A stretch of DNA of 35,747 bases from Reclinomonas americana ATCC 50394. Its lineage: Eukaryota. The stretch spans positions 1 through 35,747 of the forward strand of contig PS015216.1 of assembly GCA_048213135.1 (NCBI GenBank). The letters run 5' to 3'. This document shows positions 2,050 through 35,747 of the stretch, piece after piece; positions within the stretch are counted from its first letter, which is position 1; each line of letters starts with the position of its first letter. Position numbers and translations under genes: made by a program. The notes beneath the pieces are model-generated. The model ran no database searches, was not told the DNA's origin, and worked only from the letters and a program-made list of their open reading frames with translations.

Positions 2050-4450
2050 CTAGTTTCGATGGGCCATGATCTGCACATGCGTGATTGAGTATTCTGCTAT
2101 TGCATCAGCAGCGCTATAATGTGCAAGAGACGCAACATGAATCCAATTGTTGAGCTGCGTGCGTTTGGTCTTGAGCGAGACGTGAATCTGCTTCTCGAAA
2201 TGCGCCGCGGCCTCGGCATCCGAGCAGCCGAGCAGTAGTCTGTCACGCAGCCAGTAGATGTCCTCTTCTGATGTGAGCTCCGGAATGCCGGTGGAGATCA
2301 TCAGTTTGAAGAGATTCATCAGCATGTCACCGTGGCGGCGGATAATGTTGTAGGCCGTGCAGCACAGCTTGGTGAACAACTGGAAGTTCTGATGGCTCGT
2401 GCCGCCCATGACGTAGCAGTAGTCGGGCGTGAACACAAACGGCGCCGTCTCGCGCTTCCAGCCAGCAAAGGTCTTGTAGTTGCCGAGGAAGTGACCGAAA
2501 TCAATGTCTGTGTGCCGGAATTATCGTGAGCGAGGAAGGACAAGTAGGCGGTGCACACCCTATCAGGAAAACGCAACGGAACAACTGGCCGCTCTTGGTG
2601 AGCATAATGTTGTCGTTGTGACGATCGCCGATGCCCATGACATAGGTGGCCACACAGTAACCGGCACATGAGCTGATAAAGTTGTCGACTGCTCTCCTGT
2701 AGTGGTCCTCTCGCGGGTTGTTTCGTCGTAGCCACTTGGCGAGCGGATCCTCACGGAAGGCAGCCGTGGCACCACCGGCCTCCTTCGTGATGTTGGCCGT
2801 TGTTTCTGAGTTGAGCACCACCTCGATCATGCCGACGGCGTCGCCCAGCACAATGCACCCGTACGGAATCATGTGCAAGTCGAGACCCTCGCGTTTCCAC
2901 AACTTGTCCATGATGCGCAGCATCTGCAGCGTCAGCATGTCCTGCCGTGGATCGTCGCCGGCCTTGAAAATGACACGAATCGGGTCGCCCACTGGGTCGG
3001 CGTTCTTGAACACGAGCCATAGTGGTAGCTGCAGCAACAGAAAAAGGTAGTGAGCGACATGGCTGAACTAAGAGCAACGAGGAGAAAAAGCACCTTTTTC
3101 GAGTCCATCACACGACATGAATCAATCACCAGTCCGCACGCCTCTAGCCGCGGACTCAGTGCCAACTTGAACTGTGCGGGGAACTTGACCTCTTGCAGGC
3201 CCTCGTGAAGCACGCGCAGCTGCTCCGCCTTACTACTGCCAGCATCCTTCACTCGATACGCCACCCGCGTCAACTCGGTCACCACCATGTTCTGATTGCG
3301 GAACTCGCCTCGAATCGGTCCACACATGCGCAAAAACTCCTCCAGCAGCAGTCCATTGCGTTCAGACACGTGGTGTACGTGCATTTCGGCCTGCGCAGCA
3401 ATGGAAAGTACGTCAGAATCATTCTACTCGCCCTTCCACTCTCTCCTTCAATCTCATACCCGCAAATGCCAGTAGAAAATGTGTCCGACCAAGTGCGGCG
3501 TTTGCACGGCTCGCTTGAGGAGGAAGCGTGCCAGATCGGAGTCGTGGTGAGCCTCGTACTTGAGCACCTGATGATGATGCGAGAGTTGGCAAGTGTGGGG
3601 AGAGAGAGAAAGAAAGACAATCAGTCACCTGCGTCAGTTGCAGCATCAAGTCGTACAGCTCCGCGTCGTCCAATTGATCCAGTCGCTCCACGGCATATGC
3701 GCGAACCAGCTCATCAGCGTGACCGCCATCCAGCAGCTGCATGGAGGTGGAGTGTGTGAATGAGAAAAGAAAAACAAGTGAATTGAGGGAGGAATCAATG
3801 CTCACCTCGAGCGCATCGACGGCCGACAGTGGGGCCCACTCGTGCAAGAGACTGCAAGCCACAACTCACGTGTCAGATGAGAGAAAACGGACCATCCTTT
3901 TCGGAAAACAAGATGCAACGCAACACATGAGCCTCGTGCGTCTTGGATGGACTGTGCCATGGCACCGACGACATGAACTTGGCCAGACCCTTTGGTTCCA
4001 TTGTGTAAAAGTGTCGATATCGCCATAGCATTGCTCGGTCTTCGGGAGTCAACTTGTACAGGGGATCTGCAAAAGGATGAAGAGGGGAGAGTGGGTTGGC
4101 GTGGTCAACATTTCACAGGCAACAAATAATCGGCTCGGAACGCAACCGGCATTAGCCAGCGTGATCAGGCCCTCCCGTTCTCCGCTGGACGGCGTGCCCG
4201 GCTCAAAATCGACCTCGCTCGGATCCTGCGGTGGTTCGCCGAGCGGGAACACCACGGGCAGCGGGAATTGCTCGAATGCGAAGAACAGGGTCGCAGCATT
4301 CACTGCGCCCACGTTCTCGACGCAAGTGACTGCCAAGAAGAGAAGAAGGGGAGAGATACAGCAGTTTAGCACACACACTCACTCACTCACAACACAAAAA
4401 ACAGCAACAATAACAATGCTCTCTCTCTTTCTCTCTCACTCACTCACACA

Positions 4451-7689: not shown

Positions 7690-9338
7690 TTACACTACTT
7701 GATCAAGTTGCGCAGCGTCAAACAACTGCGGGACAGGCGCCTCTGCACGTCGCCACATGAGCAGCGGGTGCGAGGCCGGAACTTCGGCTTGTGGACCCAT
7801 CAAGCCCGTTCTACGCAGCATCTCACTGTGTAGAGTCATTGCTGCAGTGCCGCTCAAGGCAGCGGATTGGCGGTCGCGCAGGAATTCAAAGTGGTCGGCG
7901 GAGACGGTGTTGTCGCCGTGCTGCACGTACCAGTAGAGCGTGGGCGCGTCGAGCATGATGATGCGGTGGGATTGGAGGAGCTGGTGCATGGCGACTGTGT
8001 CCTCGCCGCGGTTGAGGTTGCCGTAGGGCGGCATGGCTGACTTGCGGCACACGAGTGTGTTGTCCTGGTGCCACATGACGGAGAAGCGGAGGGTCGGCGG
8101 CCACTCGTTGGCGTGCCAGATGATCTCGCGCGCCAACGTCGATGCGGCCACGGACTCGTCGGCGAAACGCACAATGGCCTGCATTTGCACGGCCAGGCGA
8201 TCTGGATCGTAGATATCGTCGTCGTCCCACACGGCCACGTACTCGCCACGTGCCATCTCCACGGCAAAGTTGCGCTGCGTGCCCAGTGTCATCTGTTCGC
8301 GCTCCTCCTCCGACGAGGTGCGGATGCCAAACAGGCGGATGCGTGAGTCGCCCAGGCGCTGCAGCACGCTGTCGAGCATGCGTTCCGTCGTCGGGTTCTT
8401 CGTCACAATCACCAGCTCGCGATTGGCATACGTCTGCAGCTGAAACAGGTACACCGCGCGCAGGGCGTGCCAGACGCGTCGATCGGTGATCATCAGGCAC
8501 GACACGAGCGGCAAGTCGGGCGATTCAGGCGAAAAGTACGGCGCCGGGAACGTGCGACTGTCGCCAAACATGATACCGCGCGCAATGACCAGTACTTCTG
8601 TTGGGTTCGCGGGCGACGGATGCTTGTCCGTGATCAGATAGCCAACATCGGTGAGCGCTGAGAGGCGAGCGCGCGTGTGTGAGCGAGTGAGTCAAGCAAC
8701 AACGAAACACACCGAACGAACCACGACCGCTGCCCTCAATCAACTGCGCAGTGACGAATCAGTGAAGATGACGCGCGTTGAGAGGGGCGACTCAAGAGGA
8801 GGGGGAGGAGGCACGCACCCAGTCTCGCATGTTCTCTGTGATGGGTGGGTGCTGCAGCTCGTTGGCGGGTGTCTCCTTGGCGACCAGTTGCCACGAGCCG
8901 CGTCCAATGCCTCCAATGCTCTGTCCGTCTTTCTCAGGGTCGGGAGGAGGTCCACACACGAGCAGAGTGAAGGTGTCGGTGAGAGGGTAGTAGATCCACC
9001 AGCGGAGAGAGCAGGTCGAGCGCAGGAAGAGAGTCGGGTGTCGTGTGCAGAAGCATGCGCGCGTCTGTGCACAGAGTGAGTGTGTGTGAGAGGGGGAGAG
9101 AGTGTGCGCGTAATCAGCGCACCTCTTCGCCTGCAATGGACACCGCATGGTCGACAGCCACTGTGCGCGCGCACATACACGTCATTCAATGCACACATAG
9201 ACACTCACACACAAACTGACGCAACATTGCGCATTGCTGTGTCTCACAAGGCACACGCGAGGTGACAAGGAGGAGGAGGAGGAGGAGAAAAGGAAACCGC
9301 AAATAACACACGGCCTCTCTTCTTCTCTCCGCAATCAT
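7690..9338 (-). CDS. GT2/GT-A fold glycosyltransferase paralog 1 with N-terminal signal or anchor; exons about 9338-9209, 9160-9123, 9064-8819, 8743-8713, 8657-7690
   Basis: LPLVSCLMIT, ELVIV, TLGTQRNFAVEMARGEYVAVWDDDDIYDPDRLAVQ (DxD motif), RGEDT, LYWYVQHGDNT; first exon MIAERRREAVCYLRFPFLLLLLLLV. The first donor site is uncertain. Confidence 0.85.
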
Positions 9339-9460: not shown

Positions 9461-11147
9461 TCACTGCACATTCGTTTCGTTGTTATGCAGCGATGGGGAT
9501 CCGGATATCGAGGTCTGTAATGTGGACGTCGACGTCGTCTGCTGAGTCCAGACGAGGAGCGGGTGCGAGGCCGGAACTTCGGCTTGCGGGCCCACCAGGC
9601 CAGTTCGCTGCAGCATATTGGCATGCAACGTCTTGGCAGAGAGGCCGCTCAGGGTGAGCGAGCGGAGGCCGAGCAAGGCGTTGACATGCTCGGTCGTCAC
9701 CGTGTTGTCGCCGTGCTGCACGTACCAGTAGAGCGTGGGCGTGTCGAGCATGATGATGCGTTGCGCCTGGAATAAGTGGTGCAGCGCGGCCACGTCCTCG
9801 CCGGTGTCGTGTTTGCTGTAGGGCGGCATCACCGACTTGCGGCACACCAGTGTGTTGAACGCATGCCAAGTGTCCGTGAAGTGGATCTGCGGCGGCCACA
9901 CGTTGGCGTGCCAGATGATCTCACGGGCGAGTGTGGAGGCGGCCAGCGAGTGGTCGGCAAAACGCACAATAGCCTGCATCTGCACGGCCAGGCGATCCGG
10001 ATCGTAAATGTCGTCGTCGTCCCACACGGCCACGTACTCGCCGTGCGCCATCTCCACGGCAAAGTTCCGCTGATCGCCCAGCGTCATCTGCTCGTACTCC
10101 TCCTCCGACGATGTGCGAATGCCGAACATGCGGATGCGTGAGTCGGCCACACGCTGCAGCACGCTGTCGAGCATGCGCACCGTCGTCGGGTTCTTCGTCA
10201 CAATCACCAGCTCGCGATTGACATACGTCTGCTTCTGAAACAGGTACACCGCGCGCAAGGCGTGCCAGATGCGTCGATCGGTGATCATCAGGCACGACAC
10301 GAGCGGCAGGTCGGGCGATTCAGGCGAAAAGTACGGCGCCGGGAACGTGCGACTGTCGCCGTGCATGATACCGCGCGCGACAATCGACACATCACTCGGA
10401 TCGCTGGCTCCGTCCACCTTGTCGGTAATCATGAACCACACGTCGGTGAGTGCTGAGAGGCGAGCGCGTGTGTAAGTGAGCAAAAAACTGAGGAGCATCC
10501 CCCAGCAAGGCAATCACGCACCTCGCCCGTTTCCTCCGATGAGCTAACGAATGACCATATCAAGGAGTGAGCATGCATGCAGGCAGTCGCGCGTGTGGGT
10601 AACAAGACACACTCTCACGCACCCAGTCACGCATCGTATCCGTGAGTGGAGGGTGCTGCTGCTGCTGCTGCTCCTCAACTGGTGTCTCTGCAGTCACCAG
10701 TTGCCACTCGCCACGCCCAACGCCACCAATCGACTTTCCGTCCATCGCTGGATCGACGGGTGGCCCACAGAGGTGCTCAGAGAAGGAGTGTTGCTGTGGA
10801 TTGTAGGTCCACCAGTGGAGAGAGCACGTGGAGCGCAAGAAGAGTGATGGATGTCGTGTGCAGAAGCATGCGCGGGTCTGCGCAGAGTGAGAGGNNNNNN
10901 NNNNNNNNNNNNNNAGAGAGAGAGAGAGAGGGACAGCACACACACAGATGCACCTCTTCGTCCGCGATGGAAACCGCGTGGTCGACAGTGACTATGCGCA
11001 CGAACGCAGGCACAAGTGAGCAAGCAGTTCACACATACGCACACACACGCATTCACTCGCGCAACTTTGTGCATTACACAGAGACACAAAGAGTATGAGA
11101 AGAAAGCAGAGAGGGAGGAGGAGGTGAGGCAGCCAGTGAGCGCACAT
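9461..11147 (-). CDS. GT2/GT-A fold glycosyltransferase paralog 2 with signal peptide; exons 11147-11057, 10991-10954, 10877-10623, 10543-10522, 10452-9461
   Basis: Near-identical catalytic exon to paralog 1 (GEYVAVWDDDDIYDPDRL, TGEDV); first exon MCAHWLPHLLLPLCFLLILFVSLCNAQ; exon phases consistent. Confidence 0.88.
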
Positions 11148-11392: not shown

Positions 11393-14061
11393 CTATGTTT
11401 TCCCCAGCACGGAATCAGTCAACGGAGCATGCAAGGCACACAACGACACAACGATACCTGACTGGCGCAAGTTGGAGCGCAGATAGAGTCGCAACAGACC
11501 GGTGACCGATGGCGTCAGGCCGACACGCACCAAGTCGTTGAAGTACAACAGCAACTGGCGCACAGTGTACACGCCCTGCACATGCAAGTGTGTAAGTCAC
11601 CCCACCAGGAACACAGAGACTGGCCTGGTGAATCGAGGAAAAAACGCACATGCGTTCGCAGCACTCGAATAATATGTGCCTGTTCCGGTGGCGTCCACGG
11701 TGCCAGTGGTGCGGCCGCGCTGATCAGCGACTCGACGTGATCCGACTCCTCGACGAAACGCTGCGCATCGGCCAGATAAGAAAAAGGACACGTCTGTAAG
11801 TCGCCCTTTCTGACGCAGCACTCACCGCGCCCACACGCGCGTCTGGTCGGGACGACAGAATGGTCGAGTCGAACAGTCGGCGAGCCAGCATCTTCTCCTC
11901 CCATCTGCACTCACTATGAGCATCACACCCTCAACAACCCTCCCCCCACCCTTTTGTCCTCTCGCAACTCATTGACTTCGCTTCGTCTCTTGGCCTCGGC
12001 TATGCGCGGCGCTTGCGGCTGCTCGTCCAGCGAACCCGCCTCCGACGCGAATCGCGCATACGACTGCGACAAGAGGCGACTCGGGGGCAGCTGATTGTCC
12101 ATCAGCGCCCCCACACCGTCGTCGAGCATGGCCGCCAGCGCAATCTCGTGCGCCGGCGCCACACGACGACTCGGCGACATGGGTCGATCGAGTCGCACAC
12201 CGTAGCGCATCGGCGACAGAGCGCGCGCACTTGACTCACCAGCACCGGCACCCGGGCGCCAGCTCGGCGAGCCACGGCTGATGAGACGCGACGGATCCAC
12301 GACCAGTGGCGCAAACTCGGCCGGCAACGCAGAGCCGGGGTACGCCGACGATCTGGGCGACGAGAGGCTGGCGGCCGAGGTGCGCGCCGACAGCAGCGAC
12401 ATGTCGGAGATGTTTTCCAGCACATTTGCTTCCGAGATGCCGTCGCCGACGCGCCCGAGTCGTTGCAGAGCCGAATAGGTGCGCGAGAGGCCTGGTGAAC
12501 CGGACCGTGGTGGCGACGACGACGACATGCGTGTGGGGAGCGGGGGTGGCGGTGGAGGAGACGGGTACGATAGCGACTGCGGTCCCCACAACTCCTTCAC
12601 CAGGGTGGCGTACGGCCCGGCAGGTTCCACCGGCTCACTGTAGTGGTGGTGCTGGTGATGGCGCGGCGAATGCACCGGCGATCCGGGCTTGAAGCTGGGC
12701 GACGGCGGGATGAGGGAGGCGGCAGAGTTGCTGACGGGGCTCCAGAACCCGGACGGTGCCTGCACGCGATCCAGCAGCGGATTGGCGGCGAATGTGCTCG
12801 TCGATGTGTTGACCACCAACGACACTATGCCGCGCGACGAGAGATGAGATAACGACACACAAAGAAAAAAAGATAGAACGAGCGAACACACCTGGCACCT
12901 CGACCAAGAACGAATCGTGTCGCGGTTCGGCCTCGATGCCGAAACCGCCCCACATGATGATGCCGTCGTCGCACGATTCGTCGCGCTTCGGCAAGCGCAA
13001 CATGCGATGACAGCACAGAGTCGGCAGCAGTCCGTCGACCGGTACACGTCGCCACACCATGAGGCCGGGGTCCTCACGCTCCCCAAGCACCAACATGAAC
13101 ACGTCGTTGACGCGGTCCATCGAGTTGCGATCGCCGCCGTGCATCATCACCAGATTGTCACGCACGGGCGTCAGCAGGTGACCACACCGCGGACCGGGAT
13201 CATCGCCGCGAGGAAAGAGCTCCCGACACGTCATGCGATCCAGGTCGAACAGCCACATGTCGTTCAGCACGTCCACCCCATCCACACCACCGTGCACGAC
13301 CACCAGCCGCTCCGAGTGATCGGAACTGAAGGCCACGCCGGCCATCAAGCAGCGCGCACGCGGCGGATACGTGCCCGCATAGTGAAACTCGAGTCGTTTG
13401 CTCGTGCGCGCGTCCAAGTCGACGAGGAACGGATCGCTGAGCGGACCTGTGGTGTCGGACCCGCCAAAGATGAACATCTCGTGCGACGACACCATCACCG
13501 CGAGGTGATCGCGTCGCGGCAGTGGCAGGTCGCCCGATAGCCGCACGTCGTCCCATACCCACGTGTCTGCGCAGTGTGAGAAGGAAGAAGAAGAGGACAG
13601 GGGTGGAGAGAAGATCGCGTACCGAGATCGAGAGCGTGCACTCGTCCACTGGTCACATTGAGCGGACCACCTCCAAAGAGCACTAGCGAGTTGCGGTAGA
13701 GCACAGCCGAGTGACCAGAGCGTGGTGATGGGCGTGAGCGGCCTCCTCCACACAGCTTCTTGTTCCATCGCCACGATCCTGATCGACAGTCAGCTGCGTG
13801 CAAGAGAGTGCGTGTGTGAGAGAGGAGAGTGAAGTCACCTGGCTGGCACACCCACACATCGTCGAGGTGCTGAGGAGTCGGGGTGGGCCCGCCTGCGGTC
13901 CACAGATCGGGCTCGTTGGCCGAGGTCGAGTACCCGAATCCGCCGACCATGATCACACGTCCGTCGCTGTCGGAGCGACTGACCATGGCGTGCCCAAAGC
14001 GCGCTCCGGGAAAGTTCAGCGGCGACGTGTCGGCGTTGAAGAGAGGCGTCGCGCGCAGCAT
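11393..14061 (-). CDS. Kelch-repeat beta-propeller protein with Ser/Pro-rich linker and unidentified C-terminal region (multi-exon)
   Basis: Repeated kelch signatures PGARFGHAM...VGG, PSPRSGHSA...LFGG, PLPRRDHLA...IFGG, VHGG...LNDMW, PGPRCGH...MHGG, MWGG. The C-terminal exons (to TAG at 11393-11395) are joined by inferred splices and are less certain. Confidence 0.82.
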
Positions 14062-14168
14062 TTGATCAAAAAGCAATGAAAATATCGGACAAATGTGATG
14101 GAGTCGCTCGATACCAGCTTGCTTCATTTCCACAACTTCGTGACGGCTCGATAACAAAGAGAGCTTCG

Positions 14169-15726
14169 TCACTTGGTCGTAGTTGTCCTCTTTTTCTTCT
14201 TCTCAGTCACCAATTCCTCCCACCACGGCTCGTCGCTGTCGCCAACGGGCGCCGATAGCCAGACATGATGGGCGGGTACTGCCGCGGTGGGGCCGACCAG
14301 TCCCGTGCGCTGCAGCAGCTGGGCCAGCAGAGTGCGCGCCGTCAGACCGGACCACTCCACCGACATGACGCGTCGCATGTCGTCAAAGTGCTCCGCCGGC
14401 CACAACTGCGCACCGTGCTGCACGTACCAATACAGCAGCGGCGCGTCGACAATGAGCAACGAGTCGCGTGCCACAATCGTGCGGACGGTGCTCGTGTCGC
14501 CGCCGCGTGTCAGCAAGCCGTAGGGCGGGAGACGTGACTTGCGACACAGCAGGGTGTTTTCGTGGATGAACACAGCGGTGGCCGCCAGCCGCGGATCGTC
14601 GGGCAGCGGTGGTGTGACGTTCCACAGGACTTCGCGCGCCAGTGTGACCGCCGTGGCACCCTGGCGGAGCAGCGCGCCCATCTGCACCGTCAAGCGGTCG
14701 GGATCGTACACATCGTCGTCGTCCCACACGGCAATGTACTCTCCGCGGGCCATGCGCACACCCAAATTGCGCTGGTGGCCGACGGTCAGCACCTCGCCGC
14801 TCTTCTCTTGGGCCAGCACGAGCCGAAGACGCGCGTTGCCCGTCAGCTCCTGCACGCGCTGCAGAATGGCCAACGTGCGCTCATTCTTGGTGACAATGAC
14901 CAGCTCCCGATTGACATACGTCTGCTGCTCGAACAGGTAAATGGCGCGCAACGCCAGCGCCACTCGCCGATCGGTAATCATCAGACACGACACCAGCGGC
15001 AGCATCGGCGACGACGGCCGGTAGTACGGTGCCGGCAGATCTCGACCATCGCCCGGTAGCACACCGCTGTGCGACAGCACCCCCTCCGCACCCGACACCA
15101 CGCCAAACCACAGGTTCTTCAGTGCTGCGACGACTTGGTTTCAATAGAAGAGACAGGGCGACAGGAGCAACAACAAAACGACGGCGTACCAGTGCCTCCG
15201 CCGTCGATCCGCTGCACAGCAGGTCAATGAGTGCGCAGATCACCAACAACGACAACGAGTAAGGAAGGACTCACCCACTGCCGCATGACATCGTCCGCGC
15301 TCACTGCTGCATCCCCATCGTCCTCTGGCACACGCACCCACACGCCACTGCCTGGCCCACTCGCCGCATCGCCCCGACACTGCGTCGCCTCCAGTCGCCC
15401 CCCCGATCGCCGATGCACCGCCCACGCCCGCTGCAGACAATTGTTGGAGGCCGAACGCAACGCCATCTCATCACAAGAGCACCGTCGCAGCTGAGGCAAG
15501 CACGCATGAGTCAAGACGATGCAACAGCAAGAGAGAAGAAGAAACGCAACTTCTTCGCCGTAGACAAAGACAAACGGAGGTGGAGGATCGTGTGTCACTG
15601 AAGAAGCGAGTCAGTGCCGCACTCACTCACTCACACACACACACACAGACCTTCCATCGCCACTGCCACCACCACTGCCACCGTCAATAACACGACGAGG
15701 GCGATGGTGGCGCAAGGCGATCTCAT
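14169..15726 (-). CDS. GT2/GT-A fold glycosyltransferase paralog 3 (more divergent) with signal peptide; exons 15726-15651, 15597-15551, 15490-15275, 15211-15190, 15124-14169
   Basis: LPLVSCLMITDRR, TVGHQRNLGVRMARGEYIAVWDDDDVYDPDRL, LYWYVQHG; first exon MRSPCATIALVVLLTVAVVVAVA; same five-exon layout as paralogs 1 and 2. Confidence 0.87.
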
Positions 15727-15796: not shown

Positions 15797-16092
15797 ATGG
15801 TGGAGAACGAGCGCGTATCGCGTGTGTGGCTCACGGCGGAGACTGTGACGACGGTGGTGCTGGCTGTCTCCACGCGCATTCTGCTCAAGACGGTGCTCTC
15901 GGGTGGAATGGTCAGTTGGACAACTTTTGGTGCAGAAGGATAGGAAGGCGATTAGGCGGCGCCTAAGTGCGCGCCTGTGATCGCCTTCTGCACACACTCA
16001 TTCACTCACTCGTTCGCACATACATCAGCCACATTGCCTTTCTGCAACTCGGTCGCACAATCATTTCTTCTGTTCACACTCACTCGCTCACT

Positions 16093-16145
<53 letters not shown>

Positions 16146-18886
16146 CGCTCTCTCACTCACTCATTCGCTCTCATCAGTCACCCTGTTACTCTCACTCCTG
16201 AATCATTCTCTCCTTCACTCTTCATCATCCTCCTTGTCATCAGTGACTCACTCACTCTCTCACGCACACTCACTCTCTCACTCATTCGCTCTCATCAGTC
16301 ACATCTTCGTCATTCTCGCACCTAAATCATGCTCGCCTTCACTCTTTCTCCTCTTCTCCCTCCATTCGCCTTCTCCCTCTGTTCCCCTCCTTCTCTCCCC
16401 TTCTCTCGCTCTCTCTCATCGCCAACGAGAACCAATTTGCGATCGCCCTTCGTTGTTGATATTGCAGCGTTTGCATGTCACGTTCCTGTTGCAATGGATG
16501 ACGGTGGCACTGGCGCCAGTGTTCTACGCGGTCGCGGTGTTGCGCAAGAGCAAGTCGGCATCGCCCGGGTGCGTTGTTCTTGTCTCCGAAACAGTACACA
16601 CTCGTGACTGAAAGTCGCACACTGGCGCAGCGATGCGAAGAAGGCAGCGGAGAAAGGTGGAGAGGGCGAGTCGCAGCAGAAGAAGAGTGGCGTCTCGTCG
16701 TGGCGGTTTGCCATTGTTGCCGCACTGGAGACAACAGCCTCGGTGCGTGCGTCTATCTGTCTATCTCTCGCATCTGCGAATCTTGTCTACTTTTTCCTCA
16801 CTGCCGCCGCTGCAGCTCATGTTTGTGTGCTCCTCGGCACACCTCTCCGGCCCGCTGGCCTCCCTGCTGCAGCAAGCCATTGTGCCCATCACGATGGCCC
16901 TGTCGTACATGATGCTGCGCGAAAAGTACACCAGCGCGCAGCTGACCGGCGCCTTTATCATCCTCGTCGGCATCGGCATTGTCATGGAGCCGCACGTCAG
17001 CGGGACGTCGCTCACCCTCTCCGTCCTTCCGTGGGCGCTGCTGTGTCTGGCCAGCACTGTGCCGATGGCGCTGGCCTCCATTGTGAAGCAAATGATTTTC
17101 GAGGACGAGGTTATTGGAGTGTTCTATTTTGTCGCGCCTCACCTGCATGCTCACCCGCTCGTTTCGCAGATGGACGTGTGGGAGTTGAATGCTCGCGTGT
17201 GCTCGTGGCAGGTGGTGCTCGGACTGCTGACGCTGCCGATCACGGCCTCGTTTGACGGTGTGGCACTGGCCGACATTCCGTCGGGACTGTTGCGTGTGGC
17301 TGCTGCTGCTAGCTTGTGTGTGTGCGTGGAGTAAGTGGTGCTGACGGATAGTTGTGAATCAGGTGGCATGGCTTCGAGTGCTACGCGTTTGGCGTCTCCG
17401 GCAGTGCCGAGGCTTCGGTGAGTGTGGTGGCGGCTGTTTTTGTGTACCTCGCTCCTAATTCTCATCGCTTGCCAGTGCGCTGGCGCCTTCTGGAGCGTCA
17501 ACATGTACCTGCTGGTACTCGTGCTGGTGAATGTGTCACTGACGGCCTTGCTTCGTGACGGAGGCGCCGGGTTGGCGGCCATTGTCAGCACACTCTCGTT
17601 CCCGCTCACCAACATTGCCTTCGCGTTGCCGTTTCGTTCACCCGACCACAGATCTCTCTTTCCCTATTGGCATCTCGCTCAACTATTCTGAGCAGTGCAA
17701 TCATGGGCGAGCATGCGCAGCGACTGAATGGATCCGACATTCTCGGCCTGTCCTTCATCCTGGCTGGCCTCGTGTACTACCGATTCCACAAGACGTTTTT
17801 CACGTCCACTCAATCGGTGAGCCGTTTGCGATCATCCATGATGTGCCGTGCAGCAGCTCACTTACTCTGCCGCAGATCGTGTCGCCGATACCAACATTGA
17901 AACGTGCAGCGTACTACGCGTACCCGACCGTGGAGTTGATGACGGTGATGCCGGAGGAGGACCTGGAGACGGTGGTTAATCTGGAGATCGGTCACAAGAA
18001 GCACGGCTTTATTCTGTACACCAGTTGAGGCTCGCGTTGATACCTGTATGTGCATTTTCATCCTTCTCTCAATCGTGTGGCAGGTTCGCCCACCGACGTC
18101 CGTGGTGTCTCATTCGACTGTGTGATGTTTGCGCACGGCTCGGTGCGGATGCGCTTCACGGATGAACGAAGTTGCGTGCACACTTTCTGCCTCTCGATCA
18201 GCTCTGGCGAGTTGCCTGGTGTCTGAGTTTGCTTGTTTGACGCAGCACGTCACAACCTCAACAAGCCGGCCATGGTACACCTGAACAATATTCTACCGCC
18301 GACCGGTGTCAATGTGGAGGCCTTCCGCGAGTACATTCGTGTGGAGCTCGAGAAGCAGGATGTAAGTCCAGAGCACTGTTTCCTTCCTCCCCCCGATGCT
18401 GATAGATTCGGTGCAGGCTGTGTTTGTGGACCTCACCGATGAGGGCGAGTTGATCTTTGGCGTGCCGGACTTTGACCACGGGTATGGCTTCTCGCCGACC
18501 GCAGACGCCAACGTGGAGGAGCTCGTGGTGCGTCTGTGTCCTGCAAACCTGCACTGCTGAGAGAATCACTGAACGCATTATTTTCTATGTAGCGCGCCGC
18601 GCTGGCAAAAGAGGAGGCTGCCACCGAGCACCACTATGAGAAGCCGTCTCCGGTTCCGTCAATCCAGCAGTTGCTGGCATCAGAGCCGGCTCCCGAGCCG
18701 GTCGAGCCGCCGCCGCAAGAGCCACCAGCAGCGGAGAAGGAAACGTCGACGGCCGCCGCATCAGCTGCGTCGTCCGACAAGGACGGTGGAGTAAGGTGAG
18801 TCGGGAGTAGTCCGTCATGCATTTATGCTTTTGCCTGACTTTTGGTGTATGCACGCAGGCGTCGGCGGCGACGAACGGGTGACTGA
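15797..18886 (+). CDS. CRT-like (chloroquine-resistance-transporter-like, DMT superfamily) membrane transporter with a C-terminal Nup98-like peptidase S59 domain. Exons: 15797-15910, 16468-16568, 16631-16742, 16816-17109, 17170-17288, 17363-17417, 17476-17630, 17696-17816, 17876-18023, 18084-18170, 18246-18361, 18417-18527, 18593-18795, 18859-18886
   Basis: CRT/CLT-like segments AHLSGPLASLLQQAIVPITMALSYMMLREKYTSAQLTGAFIILVGI, STVPMALASIVKQMIF, MDVWELNARVCSWQ, WHGFECY, STLSFPLTNIAFALPAIMG, with many hydrophobic helices; in-frame splicing continues into the S59-like domain. Confidence 0.8.
17876..18491 (+). other. Nup98/Nup145-like autoproteolytic (Nucleoporin2, peptidase S59) domain, four exons, HFS motif degenerate
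   Basis: Spliced peptide PTLKRAAYYAYPTVELMTVMPEEDLETVVNLEIGHKKHGFILYTSSPTDVRGVSFD...NLNKPAMVHLNNILP...EKQDAVFVDLTDEGELIFGVPDFDHGYGF follows the Nup98 domain pattern (GYYTxPS, FTIGRKGYGxIxF, DVxxLxLD, GLNxxAxVTL, KQGAxF, GxWxFxVxHFSxYG) over its full length. Recognised by eye. Confidence 0.75.
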
Positions 18887-19035
18887 GTGGACGTGCCGCC
18901 GTTGGTCTGTGAAACATGAATGCACATTGATGAATAGCAGATGATGACTGGGGTTTACTTGCGAGGGATTACTGTGAGGGTGTGTGTGTGGGGGGTACAA
19001 TTACAACATGCAGACACATTTGTTGCTGCAATAGT

Positions 19036-23970
<4,935 letters not shown>

Positions 23971-24054
23971 GGGAGTGAAAATGAGTGTGTGACGGACGGA
24001 GTAATATCATGTCCTACTCTCGATATCTTGAGTGATGGCGGTGAAGGTGTGGTG

Positions 24055-24416
<362 letters not shown>

Positions 24417-24444
24417 GTACGACGNNNNNNNNNNNNNNNNNNNN

Positions 24445-25009
24445 TCTGCAAGTGCGATGGCTCGAGGGACACACCAGGGAGGTGCGATGTGTCGCCGTCA
24501 CTCCCGACGGTCAGTACATTGTGAGTGGCGGCGATGACATGACTATTCTCGTGTGGCCTTTGGCAAGTGGACAATTAGTAAGAGAGTTGGCGGGGCACAC
24601 GGGGCTGGTGTGGTCCGTCGCCGTCGCTCCCGACGGTCTCCACATTGTGAGCGCAAGTGCGAGTCCGGACAAGACGGTGCGTGTGTGGTCGCTGGCTGGC
24701 GCAGAGGAGGTGCAACGGTTGAAGGGACACAGTCGGCCAGTGACAACTACCGCCGTCTCACCCGATGGTCAGCACATTGTTAGCGGCGGCGATGACAAGA
24801 GTGTGCGCGTGTGGTCCACGCCACGTGGCCTTGCTCGGCGGGAGCTCGACCTCGCCAGATTGGCCATGCAGGCCGTGCAGGAGGAGATGCAGGCATGCGC
24901 GGAGGTGGAAGTGGACTCGCGTTGCCTTGCCGAGATGGTGCTGCGCTGTTTCATTGTCGAGGATGCCGAGGTCGTGGTGTTTCGGCGGCCGTGGGAGGTG
25001 GAGATGTGA
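24445..25009 (+). CDS. WD40-repeat protein, 5'-partial (three visible repeats plus a helical C-terminal tail)
   Basis: Three GH...V..VAVsPDG..IVSg.dDkt+rVW repeats with no introns; the 5' end runs into an N gap; stop TGA at 25007-25009. Confidence 0.85.
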
Positions 25010-25118
25010 ATGTATCTGGAAAATGAGGCATGGTGAACAACACCATATTAATTAGCCAAGTGCAAGAAATTGCAATAGCTTGACAGCACAGTATGCAAAC
25101 AGTGCGAACACGTCGTTT

Positions 25119-25242
25119 CACTGCAACAACAATAACAACTTTAATCCAAACAGCGACACAGCTGCATATGATCACCATCTTGAGTGAGCACCAGAAACTC
25201 AGACATCACGAAAAATTGCTTGCTGTTGTTGTTGGATCAGTG
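25119..25242. mobile_element. 124-bp internally deleted (MITE-like) copy of the downstream CACTG element
   Basis: Left inverted repeat (25119-25202) and left subterminal sequence are joined at TTGCT (25220-25224) to the outermost 18 bp of the right end, followed by the same flank (aagttcctactatgggacac) as at 35726-35745. Confidence 0.8.
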
Positions 25243-25264
25243 AAGTTCCTACTATGGGACACAC

Positions 25265-26019
25265 NNNNNNNNNNNNNNNNNNNNNNNNNNNNNNNNNNNN
25301 NNNNNNNNNNNNNNNNNNNNNNNNNNNNNNNNNNNNNNNNNNNNNNNNNNNNNNNNNNNNNNNNNNNNNNNNNNNNNNNNNNNNNNNNNNNNNNNNNNNN
25401 NNNNNNNNNNNNNNNNNNNNNNNNNNNNNNNNNNNNNNNNNNNNNNNNNNNNNNNNNNNNNNNNNNNNNNNNNNNNNNNNNNNNNNNNNNNNNNNNNNNN
25501 NNNNNNNNNNNNNNNNNNNNNNNNNNNNNNNNNNNNNNNNNNNNNNNNNNNNNNNNNNNNNNNNNNNNNNNNNNNNNNNNNNNNNNNNNNNNNNNNNNNN
25601 NNNNNNNNNNNNNNNNNNNNNNNNNNNNNNNNNNNNNNNNNNNNNNNNNNNNNNNNNNNNNNNNNNNNNNNNNNNNNNNNNNNNNNNNNNNNNNNNNNNN
25701 NNNNNNNNNNNNNNNNNNNNNNNNNNNNNNNNNNNNNNNNNNNNNNNNNNNNNNNNNNNNNNNNNNNNNNNNNNNNNNNNNNNNNNNNNNNNNNNNNNNN
25801 NNNNNNNNNNNNNNNNNNNNNNNNNNNNNNNNNNNNNNNNNNNNNNNNNNNNNNNNNNNNNNNNNNNNNNNNNNNNNNNNNNNNNNNNNNNNNNNNNNNN
25901 NNNNNNNNNNNNNNNNNNNNNNNNNNNNNNNNNNNNNNNNNNNNNNNNNNNNNNNNNNNNNNNNNNNNNNNNNNNNNNNNNNNNNNNNNNNNNNNNNNNN
26001 NNNNNNNNNNNNNNNNNNN
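25265..26019. other. Assembly gap (other long gaps at 27921-28316 and 29322-30240; 20-N gaps at 10895, 21633, 23385 and 24425)
   Basis: Runs of N. Confidence 1.
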
Positions 26020-26177
26020 AGGTGGACTCGCGGTGCCTGGCCATGCAGGCCGTGCAGGAGGAGATGCAGGCATGCGCGGAGGTGGAAGTGGACTCGCGGT
26101 GCCTTGCCGAGCTGGTGCTGCGCTGTTTCATTGTTGAGGATGCCGAGGTCGTGGTGTTTCGGCGCAGATATGAATGA
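26020..26177 (+). CDS. Second copy of the WD40 gene C-terminal tail (fragment after an N gap)
   Basis: LAMQAVQEEMQACAEVEVDSRCLAELVLRCFIVEDAEVVVFRR is nearly identical to 24860-24987; the 3' flank is also duplicated. Confidence 0.75.
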
Positions 26178-26283
26178 ATTTGGAAAGTGAGGCATGGAGA
26201 GCAACTGTCGTACTGTTTGGCCAAGTGCAAGAAATTGCAATAGCTTGACAGCACAGAAAGCAATCAGTGCAAACATGGCGATT

Positions 26284-26362
26284 CACTGCAACAGCAACAA
26301 CAACTTTAATCCATACAGCAACACAGCTGCATGGTGATAACCATCTTGCACCAGAAACTCAG
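26284..26362 (+). repeat. Left terminal inverted repeat
   Basis: cactg...taatccatacagcaacacagctgcat...ccatcttg...caccagaaactcag. Confidence 0.85.
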
Positions 26363-26682
26363 ACATCACGAAAAATTGCTTGCTTCACGGATCCGGACCC
26401 AGCTTAAGCTTTGCTTTGTTTGCCTGGCACGCCCAAACGCGTCCAAGTGTGCACACCGTCTGTGAAACTCGGAGGAGTTGGTAAACGTTTCACAACAATT
26501 CTCGCTGTCGTGAAAATGTTGGCCGCAGTCGGCTCGGTACGCGGTCGCACAACGTTGCACTGCAAACCCGCACCGACTGTCAGTCGACTGTCAGTGTCGC
26601 GAAATCGTCGACCGATGTGCCTTCTGTATGCTCACACAGTCCACAGTCGACGTAATTCGTTCACTTTTTGCCCCTCGCTGAC

Positions 26683-29600
26683 TCACGTGGTGCAGCGGCT
26701 ATCGCGGCCGGCTTGCGGCGCGCGAGCGGCAACAGCAGCACGTCGAGCACTGGAACGTGCACGGGCGTCCATCGCCGTATCCACAGGAACCTGGCCCCAC
26801 GCACCACCGCCGGCATGCCACGCATACAGTTCGTTGTCTTTGCGTGATTCCACCCAGTGCCGAAAGCCGATGCTCTTGGCCTGCTGTGCCGCCTTGCGGA
26901 GCTCTTGAATCGCCTTTCGGCGCCACCGCGCCGCAGCCTCTTCCACGTCAACGTCGTCGTCATCCTCCTCCTCCTCCTCCACCACCTCATCCACCTTCCT
27001 CACTCCATTCTCCTCGTGATCTTCGCCGTCCCTCTCATCTGCGTCCTCTGCGGCCACCTCGTCACCGACGCCAACAGAGGCCGTGGCGCTGTCACTCGCG
27101 CTCGACCGAGTCGCGAGTAGGTGGGTGTGCGAATGAGGAGCCGCCGCACTTGCACTTGCCATTAATTCGTGGCTGTGGCGACTCGGACGTTGTTGCTGTC
27201 GCCGCGGTCGCAGACGAGCGAGGATCAACGCCTCCTCACCAGCAATAGTTGAATTCCCGCAGTCGTCGTCGTCGGCGTCGGGATTCTCGACGCCCCAGTC
27301 TTTCACCAGTGCATCGAACTGAAAACGCCGACCATCCAGTCGATTGTAGCGGCCGTGGAGGGAACAATCACCATCTTCTCCGGTGTAGCGGTGCTGTGCA
27401 CACATTTCACGCGCACGAAGGCAGTAAGCAAGCAGAAGCACACATGGCCACGGCAGATACAGTCGCGGCGACAAGGAAATTACCTTGATGGCGAAGCATC
27501 GATTACTGCCACTGCGCTTGCCAGCCACACGATGCACCGAGCATTCTCGGCACATGTGCCGGAACTGCGCAAAGCTGGAGGGGAACAACACTTTCACGTC
27601 GTCGATGATCACAGCATTCGCTAGGCGGTATCTGTGTCGCACGCGCAGAAGTACGTGAGACAACATGCGAAACAATCATCCTCGTCATCGACAGCAGCAC
27701 GACGCACACAAAGCAGCGTGTCAGTGGATCAAAGCGCGCCTCGCCTGCTTCGTCGTACACTGGAATGTACGGACGGTACGCCACCATGTACCGCTCGCGC
27801 TCGAGTGGCTCGGAGGCCCGCACGTGACGCCGTCGGCCAGTGTAAAACCCCTCGATCCGGCAGTGCAACACCGGGAGACTCGCGGAGCCCACTGTCTCCT
27901 GCAGAGCTGACGGTGCGTCANNNNNNNNNNNNNNNNNNNNNNNNNNNNNNNNNNNNNNNNNNNNNNNNNNNNNNNNNNNNNNNNNNNNNNNNNNNNNNNN
28001 NNNNNNNNNNNNNNNNNNNNNNNNNNNNNNNNNNNNNNNNNNNNNNNNNNNNNNNNNNNNNNNNNNNNNNNNNNNNNNNNNNNNNNNNNNNNNNNNNNNN
28101 NNNNNNNNNNNNNNNNNNNNNNNNNNNNNNNNNNNNNNNNNNNNNNNNNNNNNNNNNNNNNNNNNNNNNNNNNNNNNNNNNNNNNNNNNNNNNNNNNNNN
28201 NNNNNNNNNNNNNNNNNNNNNNNNNNNNNNNNNNNNNNNNNNNNNNNNNNNNNNNNNNNNNNNNNNNNNNNNNNNNNNNNNNNNNNNNNNNNNNNNNNNN
28301 NNNNNNNNNNNNNNNNAACATATTCGTTCTGCTTCAAGTCGCGACGCTCCTCACTGTGCACACCGCCGACACGCTTGTTATTATGCGCACCGCAACAGCA
28401 CAGCATCCAATGAGCCCCCATGCGTAACTGGTGTAGCTTCTCGCCAACTGCCTCGGACACGTAGCAGCACATGCCAGCCTGCTTCTCCTGCTGGAGAGAG
28501 TGCGCCAGTGCGTGGGTCTTGTAGGATTCGACGGATACACCATCGCCACACGCTCTGCGCATACGTGTTCGTGCCGTGAGTGAGGAGCGTGATCACAATT
28601 GCGCGGCATTCGACGACTCACTCACCCAATGACGGCTCGCAGATACCAAATGGTTCGCGCGTACGCTGCATCGTCACTGCTATCCCGATGAGTGGCCATC
28701 GTGTGCGAATAGTAATCCGCCAGCGCTGGAAAGAGCAGCAAAGCTGGCTCATCCTCCATCAACGTGAACAGCTCGGCCTCCGAATACGACGGACAGTACA
28801 TGACGAGCACCGCTGCGTGAAGCGAGCATTCCCAGTGTGAGTGCTCACGCACAACTCCGAATGCATGCGTGTGTGTATGTGTGGCTTGCTGGCTGGAAAC
28901 AGCCTCACCTCGCAGTGCAAACATGATGACATGCGTTACGGCGATCCAGTCTCGCCCAAGGAAGGAACCACAGTTGTTGGCGAATGAGTAAATGACGCGA
29001 GCCAGTGTCGGATCGTCGCCAGACATGGCACTTATGAAATCGGCCAGGTCCGACATCATCTAGCCGACGATGCTCTTCTCGTCGACGAGGCGCAAAAAGC
29101 AGGTCTCGAGTGCGGCGCGGAAACGGACAGCAATGCCCTCAGCAACTATGTGACGATAGATGGGCAGCAAGATGTCTCGATGAACCTGCATGTGTCGGTT
29201 GTGAGTTTTTGAGGGCGAGGGAAGATCTCAAACACATACACAGGCACGCACGTTAAAGTCCGGCAAGTCGGTGACGAGTGCCGATGCAGGGTTCCTGTCA
29301 CCTGCCACACCCAGTATAACCNNNNNNNNNNNNNNNNNNNNNNNNNNNNNNNNNNNNNNNNNNNNNNNNNNNNNNNNNNNNNNNNNNNNNNNNNNNNNNN
29401 NNNNNNNNNNNNNNNNNNNNNNNNNNNNNNNNNNNNNNNNNNNNNNNNNNNNNNNNNNNNNNNNNNNNNNNNNNNNNNNNNNNNNNNNNNNNNNNNNNNN
29501 NNNNNNNNNNNNNNNNNNNNNNNNNNNNNNNNNNNNNNNNNNNNNNNNNNNNNNNNNNNNNNNNNNNNNNNNNNNNNNNNNNNNNNNNNNNNNNNNNNNN

Positions 29601-32600
29601 NNNNNNNNNNNNNNNNNNNNNNNNNNNNNNNNNNNNNNNNNNNNNNNNNNNNNNNNNNNNNNNNNNNNNNNNNNNNNNNNNNNNNNNNNNNNNNNNNNNN
29701 NNNNNNNNNNNNNNNNNNNNNNNNNNNNNNNNNNNNNNNNNNNNNNNNNNNNNNNNNNNNNNNNNNNNNNNNNNNNNNNNNNNNNNNNNNNNNNNNNNNN
29801 NNNNNNNNNNNNNNNNNNNNNNNNNNNNNNNNNNNNNNNNNNNNNNNNNNNNNNNNNNNNNNNNNNNNNNNNNNNNNNNNNNNNNNNNNNNNNNNNNNNN
29901 NNNNNNNNNNNNNNNNNNNNNNNNNNNNNNNNNNNNNNNNNNNNNNNNNNNNNNNNNNNNNNNNNNNNNNNNNNNNNNNNNNNNNNNNNNNNNNNNNNNN
30001 NNNNNNNNNNNNNNNNNNNNNNNNNNNNNNNNNNNNNNNNNNNNNNNNNNNNNNNNNNNNNNNNNNNNNNNNNNNNNNNNNNNNNNNNNNNNNNNNNNNN
30101 NNNNNNNNNNNNNNNNNNNNNNNNNNNNNNNNNNNNNNNNNNNNNNNNNNNNNNNNNNNNNNNNNNNNNNNNNNNNNNNNNNNNNNNNNNNNNNNNNNNN
30201 NNNNNNNNNNNNNNNNNNNNNNNNNNNNNNNNNNNNNNNNGACATCTTCCTCTGCGTAACCACTTCACGTGTGTGGTCTTGATTGCGCCAAGCCACCTTC
30301 GATCGCACGCCGACATACTGGTTGCGGACAAATACAGGGTGCCGCAGTCTGCGGGCAGTGGATAACATTCGATCCAGTCCTGCAGCCAGCATGCACCACC
30401 GTGCAGGTGAGGATTACGCAGCACAACGGGAGTTCTCCATTCCACACACTCACCATGGCACCACCAGCAGTGTAGCTGGCGAATAACCGCAGCAGCCTCC
30501 TGCGCCTCAGGGCCGTCGGCTGAGTGGAACAGCAGGTCGGCTACCACCCACAACTTCCGGCCATTGATCTCCGCCAGAAAGCCATTCCGAAGCCGGTTCA
30601 TCGAAATGGTGAGCTGTTTGTATGCCGACATGTTGCTCGTCTCTGCAAGACCATTCTCGAGCGTAAGCACCTCGAGCGTAAACACGGCTCACCACTACCC
30701 GCGTGTACGTATGCGCACCTGGTGGCGTGAGACCAACGCACGGGAAGTAGCGGGATTTTCCAGAGCGCAGCTCATCGGCCGGCCGATTGACAATCGCCAG
30801 GTGCAATGCACCTGTTGGTCGCTGCGCGCGTGTGCTCAGTGACTCTGCATCAGCGTGACAACGAATACAGTCAGTGCACGCATGCTGCTGGCAACAAACA
30901 AGTCCACATCGCTCACCCTTGAAATCATCATAGTCTGTCTTTACAAACAATACCACCACTTCGTCCGCGCCGGCCTCTGCTGCCCTGACCTCCATCGTGT
31001 TATCATACTGCAATCAAGACAGTCTCTCTCTTAGTAACAACTGCGAAATGAGCAGCCGAGAACAACAGCAGCCTACCGTCAGCGCGACACCACTCTCAGT
31101 GCCGCGAATCTGATCGTCGGTGCATTGCACAAAGGCCATCTTGCCGCCGGCAACAACATTTGTCGGAATGACGCACAGCAATGGGACGCTGCGTGGACGA
31201 TCGGCGGAAAGCATGTCCATCAGAACACTGGACTGGAAACTCGTCCGAGCACCGTCCCGGGATTGAGTGTGACTTCCACAACAGCCGTCGTTGACGGATG
31301 TCTCGGCCACACCAAGAGGCAAGCAAAGCGCTGAGCCACATCTGTTGCTGGTTCACCCCAAACGCTGACATTATTCTGCCGTGCAAAGCACTGTTTGTCA
31401 GCGCTACCGCAAGAGACAACAATCAAACATGAATTGGCGCAACTGAGGGATACGGATGGCTGTCAAACAACCACAATTGCACCACGGTTCTTTTGACTCC
31501 GTCGGGCCCCACCTGCCACATGCGCAAGCGTACACGTTGGCAACATGAGATGCATGCCAGCACAAACGACAGTGGATGATGATCAACAACTCAACGACAT
31601 CCCACGAATTCAGCACCTTGGCAATCACGTCCGCGCCGTTAACAGCAGCGCACACAAAAGAGTTCTTCCAGAGAGCGACGCGCTTGCCGTTCCCGAGGGT
31701 CGCATACGTGACAAGAGCATGCAGCTCCTTCGTCTTCACTCGCGCCCCTGTCATGGGCCCGCGACGAATAACGCTGCCGGGTGTCTGCGGAGGTGCCGGG
31801 GGTCGTTGGTCAGGGAGACACACACGCTGGGGCGCGTTGAAACACACAATACCTTGCCAGCAACATGCAAGTGACGAGGTGTGAGGCTATCCAGTGTACC
31901 AGGCAGTGCCAGCTGACGAGCAATGGTCTTCTCCAGCCGCATGTAGTGGCCTGGTTGCTCGTTGAAGTGCGTGACGCTCTCCACATACTCCGACGCCGCA
32001 AGCCCAAATGTGCTCAACTTGCACCGCCAGTCGGATATCTTCGGGGTGGTGTCCTTGTTGAAGTTGGCTCGGGGATACGTGAGAAGCGCATAAAGCAGCT
32101 CTTGTTGGCTGTGACTGAGTTTCACCAGCTCGATGAATTGCATGAGAAGGGCGTGTTCGAGTGATTTGGCAGGCGCGAACGGGTTGTCGGGCGGGATGAC
32201 TTTCTGTGCGCACAGGCAAACTCAGGCACTCGCATCACCAGTAGTAACATTAGCATGATGACGCTCACATGCGCACGTACCATCTGCTTGGCAGTGAATT
32301 CCTCAATCATGTTCACAACGCGCTGATGCTCCTCGTCGGTGAACGCCTCCAGCTCGGCAGCAGCCCGCTTGAGGTCGCGCTGAAGCTCTCGCTCACTCTC
32401 GTCAGCGGCGTACGCCTCATAATCATAGTTCTCGTCCTCGTCCTCGTCCGAGCTCGGCTCAGCCTCTTCCTCGACGCACACATAGTCTGCATCACAGCGT
32501 GAGAATGAACCAACAGGGATGTCACGAAGCAGCAACCGCAGCAACACACCGTCGCTTGCACAAGCACTCTCCACATCCTCTTCCTCGTCCTCGTCATCGT

Positions 32601-33262
32601 CATCGTCCATGGGGGCTGTAGCGGTGGACTCACAGAGACTGCCGCCACCGTCGATCATCACCTGATCGTTCTTCGGCGCAACGCGCTCGAGGACGCCATC
32701 AACTGGCATCTCATCATCGTCGCTGGTGTCTGCGGATGAGAAACGCAGCTCCATCGGGGCATCAGCAATCTCACGAGCCAGTGCGTCGTCGGCCTGTCGC
32801 TGCCACACATCGTGCGGCCCATGTCTCGCGAGCTGAATGCGGTGGCTCTGTGTGCATGTGTGAGAGCATCAGCACCACGGAAGGGAACGCACACACACAC
32901 ACACATACAAACACACACACATGCCTGTGCACATCAGCGCAGAGCGACGTCGAGACAAAGATGATGAAGTCAATCCGCGAGTTTGAGCTTTTGTCCGTCA
33001 CGCACACACGCACCGACACACACACGAAGAGCGCGCCCATGCACACCTTGCTGTTGATGTGTCTGAGAAAGTTGCTTGAGCGATGAGGGGCCATTGGTTT
33101 GCGGCCGCAACACCAACAGCGCCACTTATTGGAGGGCACCGCGTGTTTTCCTGTCGAGTGATGGACTCGCTTTACCCTTGCTAACACGCCTGCGAGCGCA
33201 TCGAGCAGGCCTACACTGTGTAGACTCTGTGCAATGACCTGGTTGATGGCACTGTCGGGCAC
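26683..33262 (-). pseudogene. Intron-rich CMC/CACTA(Plavaka)-like DDE transposase with N-terminal zinc finger; interrupted by two N gaps and an in-frame TAG
   Basis: Ordered motifs: CWCC...SSNFLRHINSK|SH (zinc finger); NPFAP; KTDYDDF (about 30930, candidate D1); GALHLAIVNRP..LR...VGLTPP; LRNGF...LLFHSADGPEAQ...CWWCH (candidate D2); LPDFN|V...HIVAEGI; GRDW; KTHALAH...SEAVGEKLH (candidate E); HMCREC. In-frame TAG at 29060-29062. Both gene ends are uncertain. Confidence 0.72.
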
Positions 33263-33590
33263 CGTTCACAGTGCAGCGCGAGAGGAAGAAAGATGAGATG
33301 GAGAGGAGACGTCAGATGAGGAGGGAAACGTGTGTAGAGAAGGGCTGCTCGCGTTCGAGCAGTGCACTAATGTACCGCAGCGCGTACTCGATTCATCATC
33401 ATGAGCTTGCGGTTTGATGATGAAAACAGTGACTCCATCGCCGAGTCCACGGCAGCGGCGCCATTCTCGCCGGCTGCTCTGCGCTCCAGCTCAGGCGGAA
33501 GCTCCTACAGCAGTTGCGTGCGTCGTTCGCAGTTGGGTAACGTTGTCGAACGTTGTTGCTAAACTCCTGCGCCTCTTCATTACAGGTGAG

Positions 33591-34321: not shown

Positions 34322-34357
<36 letters not shown>

Positions 34358-35725: not shown

Positions 35726-35747
35726 AAGTTCCTACTATGGGACACAT

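Follow-up and report, generated by a model that had tools for sequence, protein, structure and literature searches.

We examined a 35,747-nucleotide (nt) stretch of the Reclinomonas americana ATCC 50394 genome (assembly GCA_048213135.1, contig PS015216.1), hereafter the window, meaning this stretch at its full length. Its plus strand carries a gene predicted to join a CRT-like membrane transporter in frame to a domain of the Nup98 nucleoporin type. The gene model has 14 exons and 1806 coding nt (601 codons), runs from an ATG at 15797 to a TGA at 18884-18886 with no internal stop, and shows GT...AG boundaries at all 13 introns. Exon peptides were scanned against Pfam one by one (n = 12; the peptides of exons 6 and 14 fell below a scannable length), and codon log-odds were taken from a codon-usage table trained on 2727 codons from nine other frames in the window. 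The elements of the gene on which the argument draws are listed below, P0002 being the closest homologue.

15797-15910, + strand: exon 1, with the ATG and the first hydrophobic helix of the CRT-like part; codon log-odds +24.3 bits; within the phmmer alignment to P0002; no Pfam match singly.
15911-16467, + strand: intron 1, 557 nt, GTCAGT...CAG, with a (CA)24 microsatellite and CACTCACT repeats, tandem repeats at 16077-16163.
16468-16568, + strand: exon 2, CRT-like; +11.6 bits; within the P0002 alignment.
16631-16742, + strand: exon 3, CRT-like, a charged loop and the next helix; +19.9 bits; within the P0002 alignment.
16816-17109, + strand: exon 4, CRT-like core; PF08627 at E 7.6e-24 and 84.7 bits, profile positions 84-178 of 335.
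17170-17330, + strand: exon 5, CRT-like; PF08627 at E 0.02, profile 182-212; last 14 codons uncertain.
17331-17362, + strand: intron 5, 32 nt, GTAAGT...CTGAC...CAG; required for the open frame.
17363-17417, + strand: exon 6, CRT-like Cys-containing loop of 18 residues, following the unusually short 32-nt intron.
17476-17630, + strand: exon 7, CRT-like; PF08627 at E 3.3e-7 and 30.1 bits, profile 256-306.
17696-17816, + strand: exon 8, last transporter helix; PF08627 at E 0.013, profile 309-335 of 335; ends ...TFFTSTQS with no stop.
17817-17875, + strand: intron 8, the intron of the putative fusion, 59 nt, phase 0; GTGAGC...CTCAC (15 nt before the end)...CAG.
17876-18023, + strand: exon 9, start of the putative Nup98-type domain, 49 residues; PF04096 at E 0.003; +38.6 bits.
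18084-18170, + strand: exon 10, presumed middle strands, 28 residues; +8.5 bits, against -14.9 and -12.9 in the other frames.
18246-18361, + strand: exon 11, presumed middle of the domain, 38 residues; +33.0 bits.
18417-18527, + strand: exon 12, presumed last strands, 37 residues, ...FGVPDFDHGYGFS (reads ...VPDFDHGYGFS); +29.1 bits.
18593-18795, + strand: exon 13, low-complexity acidic tail rich in Pro and Ala; +17.4 bits; no Pfam match.
18859-18886, + strand: exon 14, an Arg run and the TGA; uncertain, with negative log-odds over only 8 codons.

Homology searches confirmed the predicted identity of exons 1 to 8 as a CRT-like transporter, which the sequence-only reading of this DNA had proposed. 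The family profile (CRT-like, PF08627) matched four of the 12 scanned peptides in collinear order, exons 4, 5, 7, and 8 together covering positions 84-335 of 335; exon 4 (84.7 bits) and exon 7 (30.1 bits) exceeded the curated cut-off of 26.9 bits, and the profile ended in exon 8, 12 codons upstream of the donor. Exons 1 to 3 had no Pfam match singly, yet they lie inside the alignment to P0002, which was the best match (E 2.2e-48) when the spliced N-terminal 371 residues were searched with phmmer against the collected representatives. Residues 17-361 of the model align to residues 124-447 of P0002, whose own CRT-like match spans profile positions 3-335. Exon 4 alone drew 367 proteins at E<=1e-3 from 1.84 billion representatives, with 27-48% identity in the best 150 of the 367, and the sole match at E<=1 among solved structures was PfCRT (6ukj_A, E 5.3e-4, query residues 9-96 to chain residues 153-239). 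Hydrophobic stretches (Kyte-Doolittle, 19-residue window, threshold 1.4) occurred only in residues 12-334, merging to approximately 8-9 segments where the CRT-like family would lead one to expect about ten helices, and residues 372-601 held no hydrophobic segment (maximum 0.75). The Pfam families found in the membrane part were CRT-like and related transporter families only, none of them belonging to a transmembrane nucleoporin such as Ndc1, gp210, Pom121, Pom152, or Pom33.

One corner of this model, the end of exon 5 with intron 5, is uncertain because the last 14 residues of that exon face a gap in the alignment to P0002, beside the 32-nt intron; either the intron is unusually short or the gene model is wrong there. 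Intron 1 is approximately 10 times the usual length, its (CA)24 repeat is perfect, and it is the sole intron of the 13 without a CTSA motif near its acceptor. At the other end of the gene, exon 14 would finish the protein with six arginines, and were intron 13 retained the frame would stop after one extra codon. Such a six-arginine end on a cytosolic tail could act as an arginine-based endoplasmic reticulum (ER) retention signal or as a nuclear-targeting patch.

In the gene model, the transporter and the downstream exons meet exactly as the sequence-only reading had described, exon 8 ending in TSTQS at 17816 and a phase-0 intron (17817-17875, GTGAGC...CAG) leading into four exons. Support for the join is internal to the sequence throughout. 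The 59 nt of intron 8 can be set beside the other introns, 11 of 12 of which measure 55-75 nt (exceptions, 557 nt and 32 nt). A branch-like CTSA motif stands 11-20 nt before the AG in 12 of the 13 introns, intron 8 included, compared with 277 of 2270 (12.2%) in the plus-strand AG background. Each of exons 9 to 13 has positive codon log-odds in the proposed frame and negative values in both others, the sum reaching +126.6 bits; exons 9, 11, and 12 reach 0.79-0.87 bits per codon, higher than any of the 39 values obtained for intron frames (maximum 0.41). The earlier observation that the downstream frame has no ATG of its own before the domain was borne out, none occurring between 17600 and 17938. 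The first, at 17939, lies past AYYAYPTVEL, a segment that belongs to both the Pfam and the Nup116 alignments described below, and the 21 codons ahead of it, which include the residues matched to profile positions 2-12, have a log-odds of +8.1 bits in this frame, compared with -9.0 and -0.1 in the other two. With no in-frame ATG upstream and AYYAYPTVEL within the alignments, a complete domain would therefore be translatable only from upstream, via exon 8. Retention of intron 8 would add 27 further codons, at -0.48 per codon, before a stop at 17898-17900.

Exon 8 also contains an in-frame ATG at 17703, just ahead of the last transmembrane helix. As a speculation, a start there would yield a short form composed of a single-helix membrane anchor and the nucleoporin-type domain.

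Nup98, Nup145N, and Nup116 attach to the scaffold of the nuclear pore through the Nup98-type domain. The spliced product of exons 9 to 12 runs from IVSPIPTLKRAAYYAYPT to ...FGVPDFDHGYGF, and the earlier claim that it follows this domain found support for exon 9. Residues 11-48 of that exon's peptide matched positions 2-39 of the 148-position Nucleoporin2 profile (PF04096) at E 0.003 and 18.2 bits. The match stands out because chance-level Pfam matches among the same 12 peptides fell at E 0.11-0.29, and by our own arithmetic an E value of 0.003 over 24736 models amounts to a probability of approximately 1e-7 for a single family named beforehand. A phmmer search of Protein Data Bank (PDB) sequences with exon 9 returned three sequences at E<=10, of which Nup116 (3nf5_A) was the best at E 0.51; peptide residues 12-46 aligned to chain residues 15-49, the N-terminal end of the construct, matching the Pfam position. 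Exons 10 to 12 add approximately 95 residues, roughly what the rest of the profile requires, and they presumably fit the consensus of the family as we know it, C-terminal strands included. Nup98-type identity is supported for exon 9 only, predicted to be the first quarter of the domain. When the peptides of exons 9 to 12, one of them shorter than 30 residues, were co-folded as four chains without alignments, the score was 0.00, which speaks neither for nor against the domain.

The in-frame fusion proposed by the sequence-only reading is supported by the splice signals, the codon bias, the missing start codon, and the exon-level Pfam match; the support is partial, and several results weigh against it. 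The apparently compact genome is one, with the ends of two convergent open reading frames (ORFs) 87 nt apart (1966 and 2053). Such tight packing makes a short gap between separate genes more likely from the outset. Exons 10 and 13 reach only 0.30 and 0.26 bits per codon, inside the intron-frame range. Among the 150 CRT-like representatives collected, those of at least 420 residues (58, leaving 92 shorter ones) were scanned with Pfam at E<=0.01; all 58 carried CRT-like and 0 of 58 carried Nucleoporin2, so that the architecture did not recur among them. The 230-residue C-terminal part likewise found nothing by phmmer among all 150 (best E 0.86). As to the domain itself, 18.2 bits lies below the Nucleoporin2 cut-off of 28.4, the match spans only a quarter of the profile, and exons 10, 11, and 12 matched no Pfam family and no relevant structure when searched singly. 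Finally, the His-Phe-Ser (HFS) triplet that defines the catalytic site is absent from the 601-residue product.

The packing and the lack of relatives with such a C-terminal domain (0 of 58) would both suit a pair of neighboring genes that share a strand; very short gaps between some genes do occur in this window (for example, the 87 nt between 1966 and 2053). In that case the transporter would stop at 17898, 27 codons into an unspliced intron 8, and a separate small nucleoporin-domain gene would begin, for example, at ATG 17939 or receive a 5' exon or leader spliced at 17875/17876. A start at 17939, however, would remove AYYAYPTVEL, which is present in both alignments and has in-frame codon bias; the read-through tail has negative log-odds, and the 59-nt spacer bears the full intron signature of this gene. 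Nor is there a one-directional gene array of the kind that would suggest leader trans-splicing, since the flanking genes occupy the other strand. We regard two genes as unlikely.

A second alternative accepts the open frame as real and takes the C-terminal extension for a lineage-specific tail, its likeness to Nup98 being a chance match of one short exon. It draws on the score below the family cut-off, on exon 9 being the sole match, on the PDB E value of 0.51, and on the many CRT-like proteins with tails of 80-300 residues, which in P0053, P0106, P0118, and P0096, for example, contain no Pfam family. Further searches with single exons gave nothing relevant. In the PDB sequences exons 10 and 11 had no match and exon 12 met only a phage baseplate spike (E 0.32), which is irrelevant; in the ESM Atlas exon 9 had no usable match and exon 12 reached only 0.80-0.81 to bacterial clusters, a chance level. 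Against chance stand the approximately 1e-7 for a family named beforehand, the fact that the same family tops two libraries, Pfam and PDB, at matching N-terminal positions, and the roughly 95 further residues, close to what the 148-position profile lacks; the C-terminal strands also appear to fit, by the assumed family consensus. On these grounds a chance likeness seems rather improbable.

The loss of the catalytic triplet, in a draft scaffold with 7 runs of N, could also mark the downstream exons as a decaying, untranslated remnant of a duplicated Nup98 3' end, or the gene model as an artefact of the draft assembly. This we judge highly improbable given five consecutive exons that are open with canonical splice sites, a local codon bias kept at +126.6 bits over exons 9 to 13, and the absence of any N run between 10914 and 21633.

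Having weighed these alternatives, we hold with moderate confidence that the locus is an in-frame fusion, in which one gene would encode a CRT-like transporter and a Nup98-derived docking domain in one polypeptide. The peptidase S59 (autoproteolytic) label that the sequence-only reading gave to the domain needs qualifying, given the missing HFS. In excerpts of two studies, HFS is described as the conserved and required cleavage site (PMC4483485, PMC6062611). Lacking HFS, the domain could be no more than a docking fold that does not cleave itself. We take DFD in exon 12 (...VPDFDHGYGFS) to occupy the position of the His-Phe-Ser site, going by the consensus we assume for the family. The product contains only 2 FG dipeptides and no GLFG, so that FG repeats are absent, and exon 13, where no Pfam family was found, provides no Nup96 part.

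The downstream exons might instead belong to a canonical Nup98 gene, one of whose introns contains the transporter; this was rejected, as the window has no FG-rich frame. On both strands, only one ORF of at least 40 residues had at least three FG dipeptides; it had exactly three, and it lies in a Kelch-repeat gene on the minus strand.

Wider searches for the same architecture gave a similar picture. Word-indexed protein searches for longer proteins with exon 9 and exon 4 as queries found none, and metagenome scans with the same two exons produced pattern matches among which no relative was confirmed by tblastn. Because the lineage is unsampled, the absence of relatives with this architecture says little. 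A search of the full-text literature, judged by titles and the openings of abstracts, yielded no description of a CRT-like/nucleoporin fusion, in agreement with the earlier statement that none is known.

Across the window, 88 stop-free frames of at least 120 residues were scanned with Pfam. Outside gaps the window has approximately 55-65% G+C and short GT-AG introns. It is a draft scaffold, as its seven N runs, 2150 bases in total, indicate. Features outside the transporter gene were as follows.

3-1966, + strand: selenocysteine-specific elongation factor (eEFSec), by Pfam; open over long stretches, with few introns if any.
2053-3865, - strand: PI3/PI4-kinase frame, by Pfam.
7693-8691, 9464-10513, and 14172-15140, - strand: three family-2 glycosyltransferase frames, by Pfam.
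12638-14202, - strand: Kelch repeats, by Pfam.
25265-26019, 27921-28316, and 29322-30240, with four further runs of 20 nt: runs of N.

The eEFSec frame matched 892 proteins at E<=1e-20 in a collection of 5.8 billion, and the best of them were only 42-55% identical; they represent every eukaryotic supergroup, with animals, green algae, amoebae, and stramenopiles among the sources. The collection therefore holds no close sequenced relative, and the lineage is poorly sampled. Judging from this predicted gene, the organism uses selenocysteine. The eEFSec (+) and PI3/PI4-kinase (-) frames are convergent and end approximately 87 nt apart (1966 and 2053), a very tight packing. The glycosyltransferase frame at 14172-15140 (-) directly adjoins the Kelch-repeat frames; the glycosyltransferase frames may form a tandem family, perhaps including one gene that fuses a glycosyltransferase to Kelch repeats and is divergent from the transporter gene at its start. 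In the second half of the window (19000-35747) none of the long open frames matched a Pfam family, and Rfam (gathering thresholds) and ARAGORN returned no match over the whole window.

Each half of the predicted protein has known counterparts. Exons 1 to 8 are like the CRT and CRT-like transporters (PfCRT, plant CLTs, and Dictyostelium Crt homologues; PF08627) to the last position of the profile, with a best identity over exon 4 of only 43-48%. Named neighbors of the best CRT-like representatives come from Endostelium, Dictyostelium citrinum, Rhodelphis, and Andalucia ("Crt homolog 1"). Unlike this gene, none of the 58 long representatives has a recognizable domain after the last helix. Known CRT members reside in the membranes of digestive vacuoles, acidic vesicles, or plastids, and we know of nothing that links them to the nuclear envelope.

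Compared with the Nup98/Nup145N/Nup116/Nup100 domain (PF04096, peptidase S59), exon 9 is alike at the N-terminal end and exons 9 to 12 are about the right length, whereas the present protein would have no HFS, no FG or GLFG repeats before the domain, no Nup96 after it, a polytopic transporter in front, and a score below the cut-off. A domain followed by a short tail in place of Nup96 recalls the short Nup98 isoforms, such as the spliced isoform of S. pombe, whose tail has 33 residues in the excerpted account (PMC4483485). According to the same excerpts, uncleaved Nup98-96 orthologues (Trypanosoma TbNup158 and others) keep the domain and lose HFS (PMC4483485), so cleavage is not essential to the use of the fold; those proteins, unlike the one predicted here, remain canonical FG-Nup98 joined to Nup96. 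As described in excerpts of its report, Nup221 of Plasmodium berghei is a large Nup100-like FG nucleoporin without HFS, carries two predicted transmembrane segments, was localized by tagging, and was proposed by its authors to have a role in anchoring the pore in the membrane (PMC6062611). Likened by description only, Nup221 and the present protein would share a Nup98/Nup100-type character, the lack of HFS, and predicted membrane-spanning segments, and they differ in that here FG repeats are missing and the membrane part would be a complete transporter domain.

The fusion that we favor would produce a single polypeptide of approximately 600 residues. Its first 360 or so would form a polytopic CRT-like transporter of the drug/metabolite-transporter superfamily, to which the 59-nt phase-0 intron after the last helix would join a soluble domain of approximately 130 residues derived from the autoproteolytic domain of Nup98/Nup145N/Nup116. 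A low-complexity, acidic, proline-rich tail of approximately 85-110 residues would follow the domain, with an arginine run perhaps at its end if the last intron is real. Exons 9 to 12 may fold as one beta-sandwich of the Nup98 type. Without HFS, FG repeats, or a Nup96 part, self-cutting and a contribution to the permeability barrier drop out, and protein docking remains.

The termini of PfCRT face the cytosol. The domain would probably do the same, leaving it free to dock on a partner through which it could tether or regulate the transporter; at the pore membrane this partner might be Nup96 or the beta-propeller of Nup82/88. The N-terminus of Nup96 is another ligand of the Nup98-type fold. In Nup145N, the autoproteolytic domain is the part that binds the Nup82 beta-propeller, as stated in an excerpt of the structural work (PMC5653651). 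That the docking partner is the nuclear pore is nevertheless doubtful. We are just as hesitant about a more specific version, in which a lineage-specific pore-membrane protein would act as a working transporter of the nuclear envelope or ER, the non-cleaving domain on its cytosolic tail occupying the Nup82/88 or Nup96 docking site. Such a protein might anchor the pore in a lineage that perhaps lacks the usual membrane nucleoporins, or it might place metabolite transport at the pore. The function suggested by the sequence-only reading, in which the transporter is tethered to the pore or the nuclear envelope or the protein is itself a transmembrane nucleoporin, is pure inference.

Both halves of the protein are well-known domains, and the novelty would lie in their architecture, as none of the closest known systems appears to join a Nup98-type domain to a transporter. 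Should the join prove false, the locus would consist of a transporter gene beside a small orphan Nup98-domain gene, still unusual, but minor. The excerpted report on Nup221 raises the question of how the pore is anchored in lineages without the usual membrane nucleoporins (PMC6062611). If the fusion is true, the gene would offer a natural case of the Nup98-type fold used as a pure docking module, without a cleavage site or FG repeats, and it would give a deep-branching protist a candidate membrane anchor or pore-proximal transporter.

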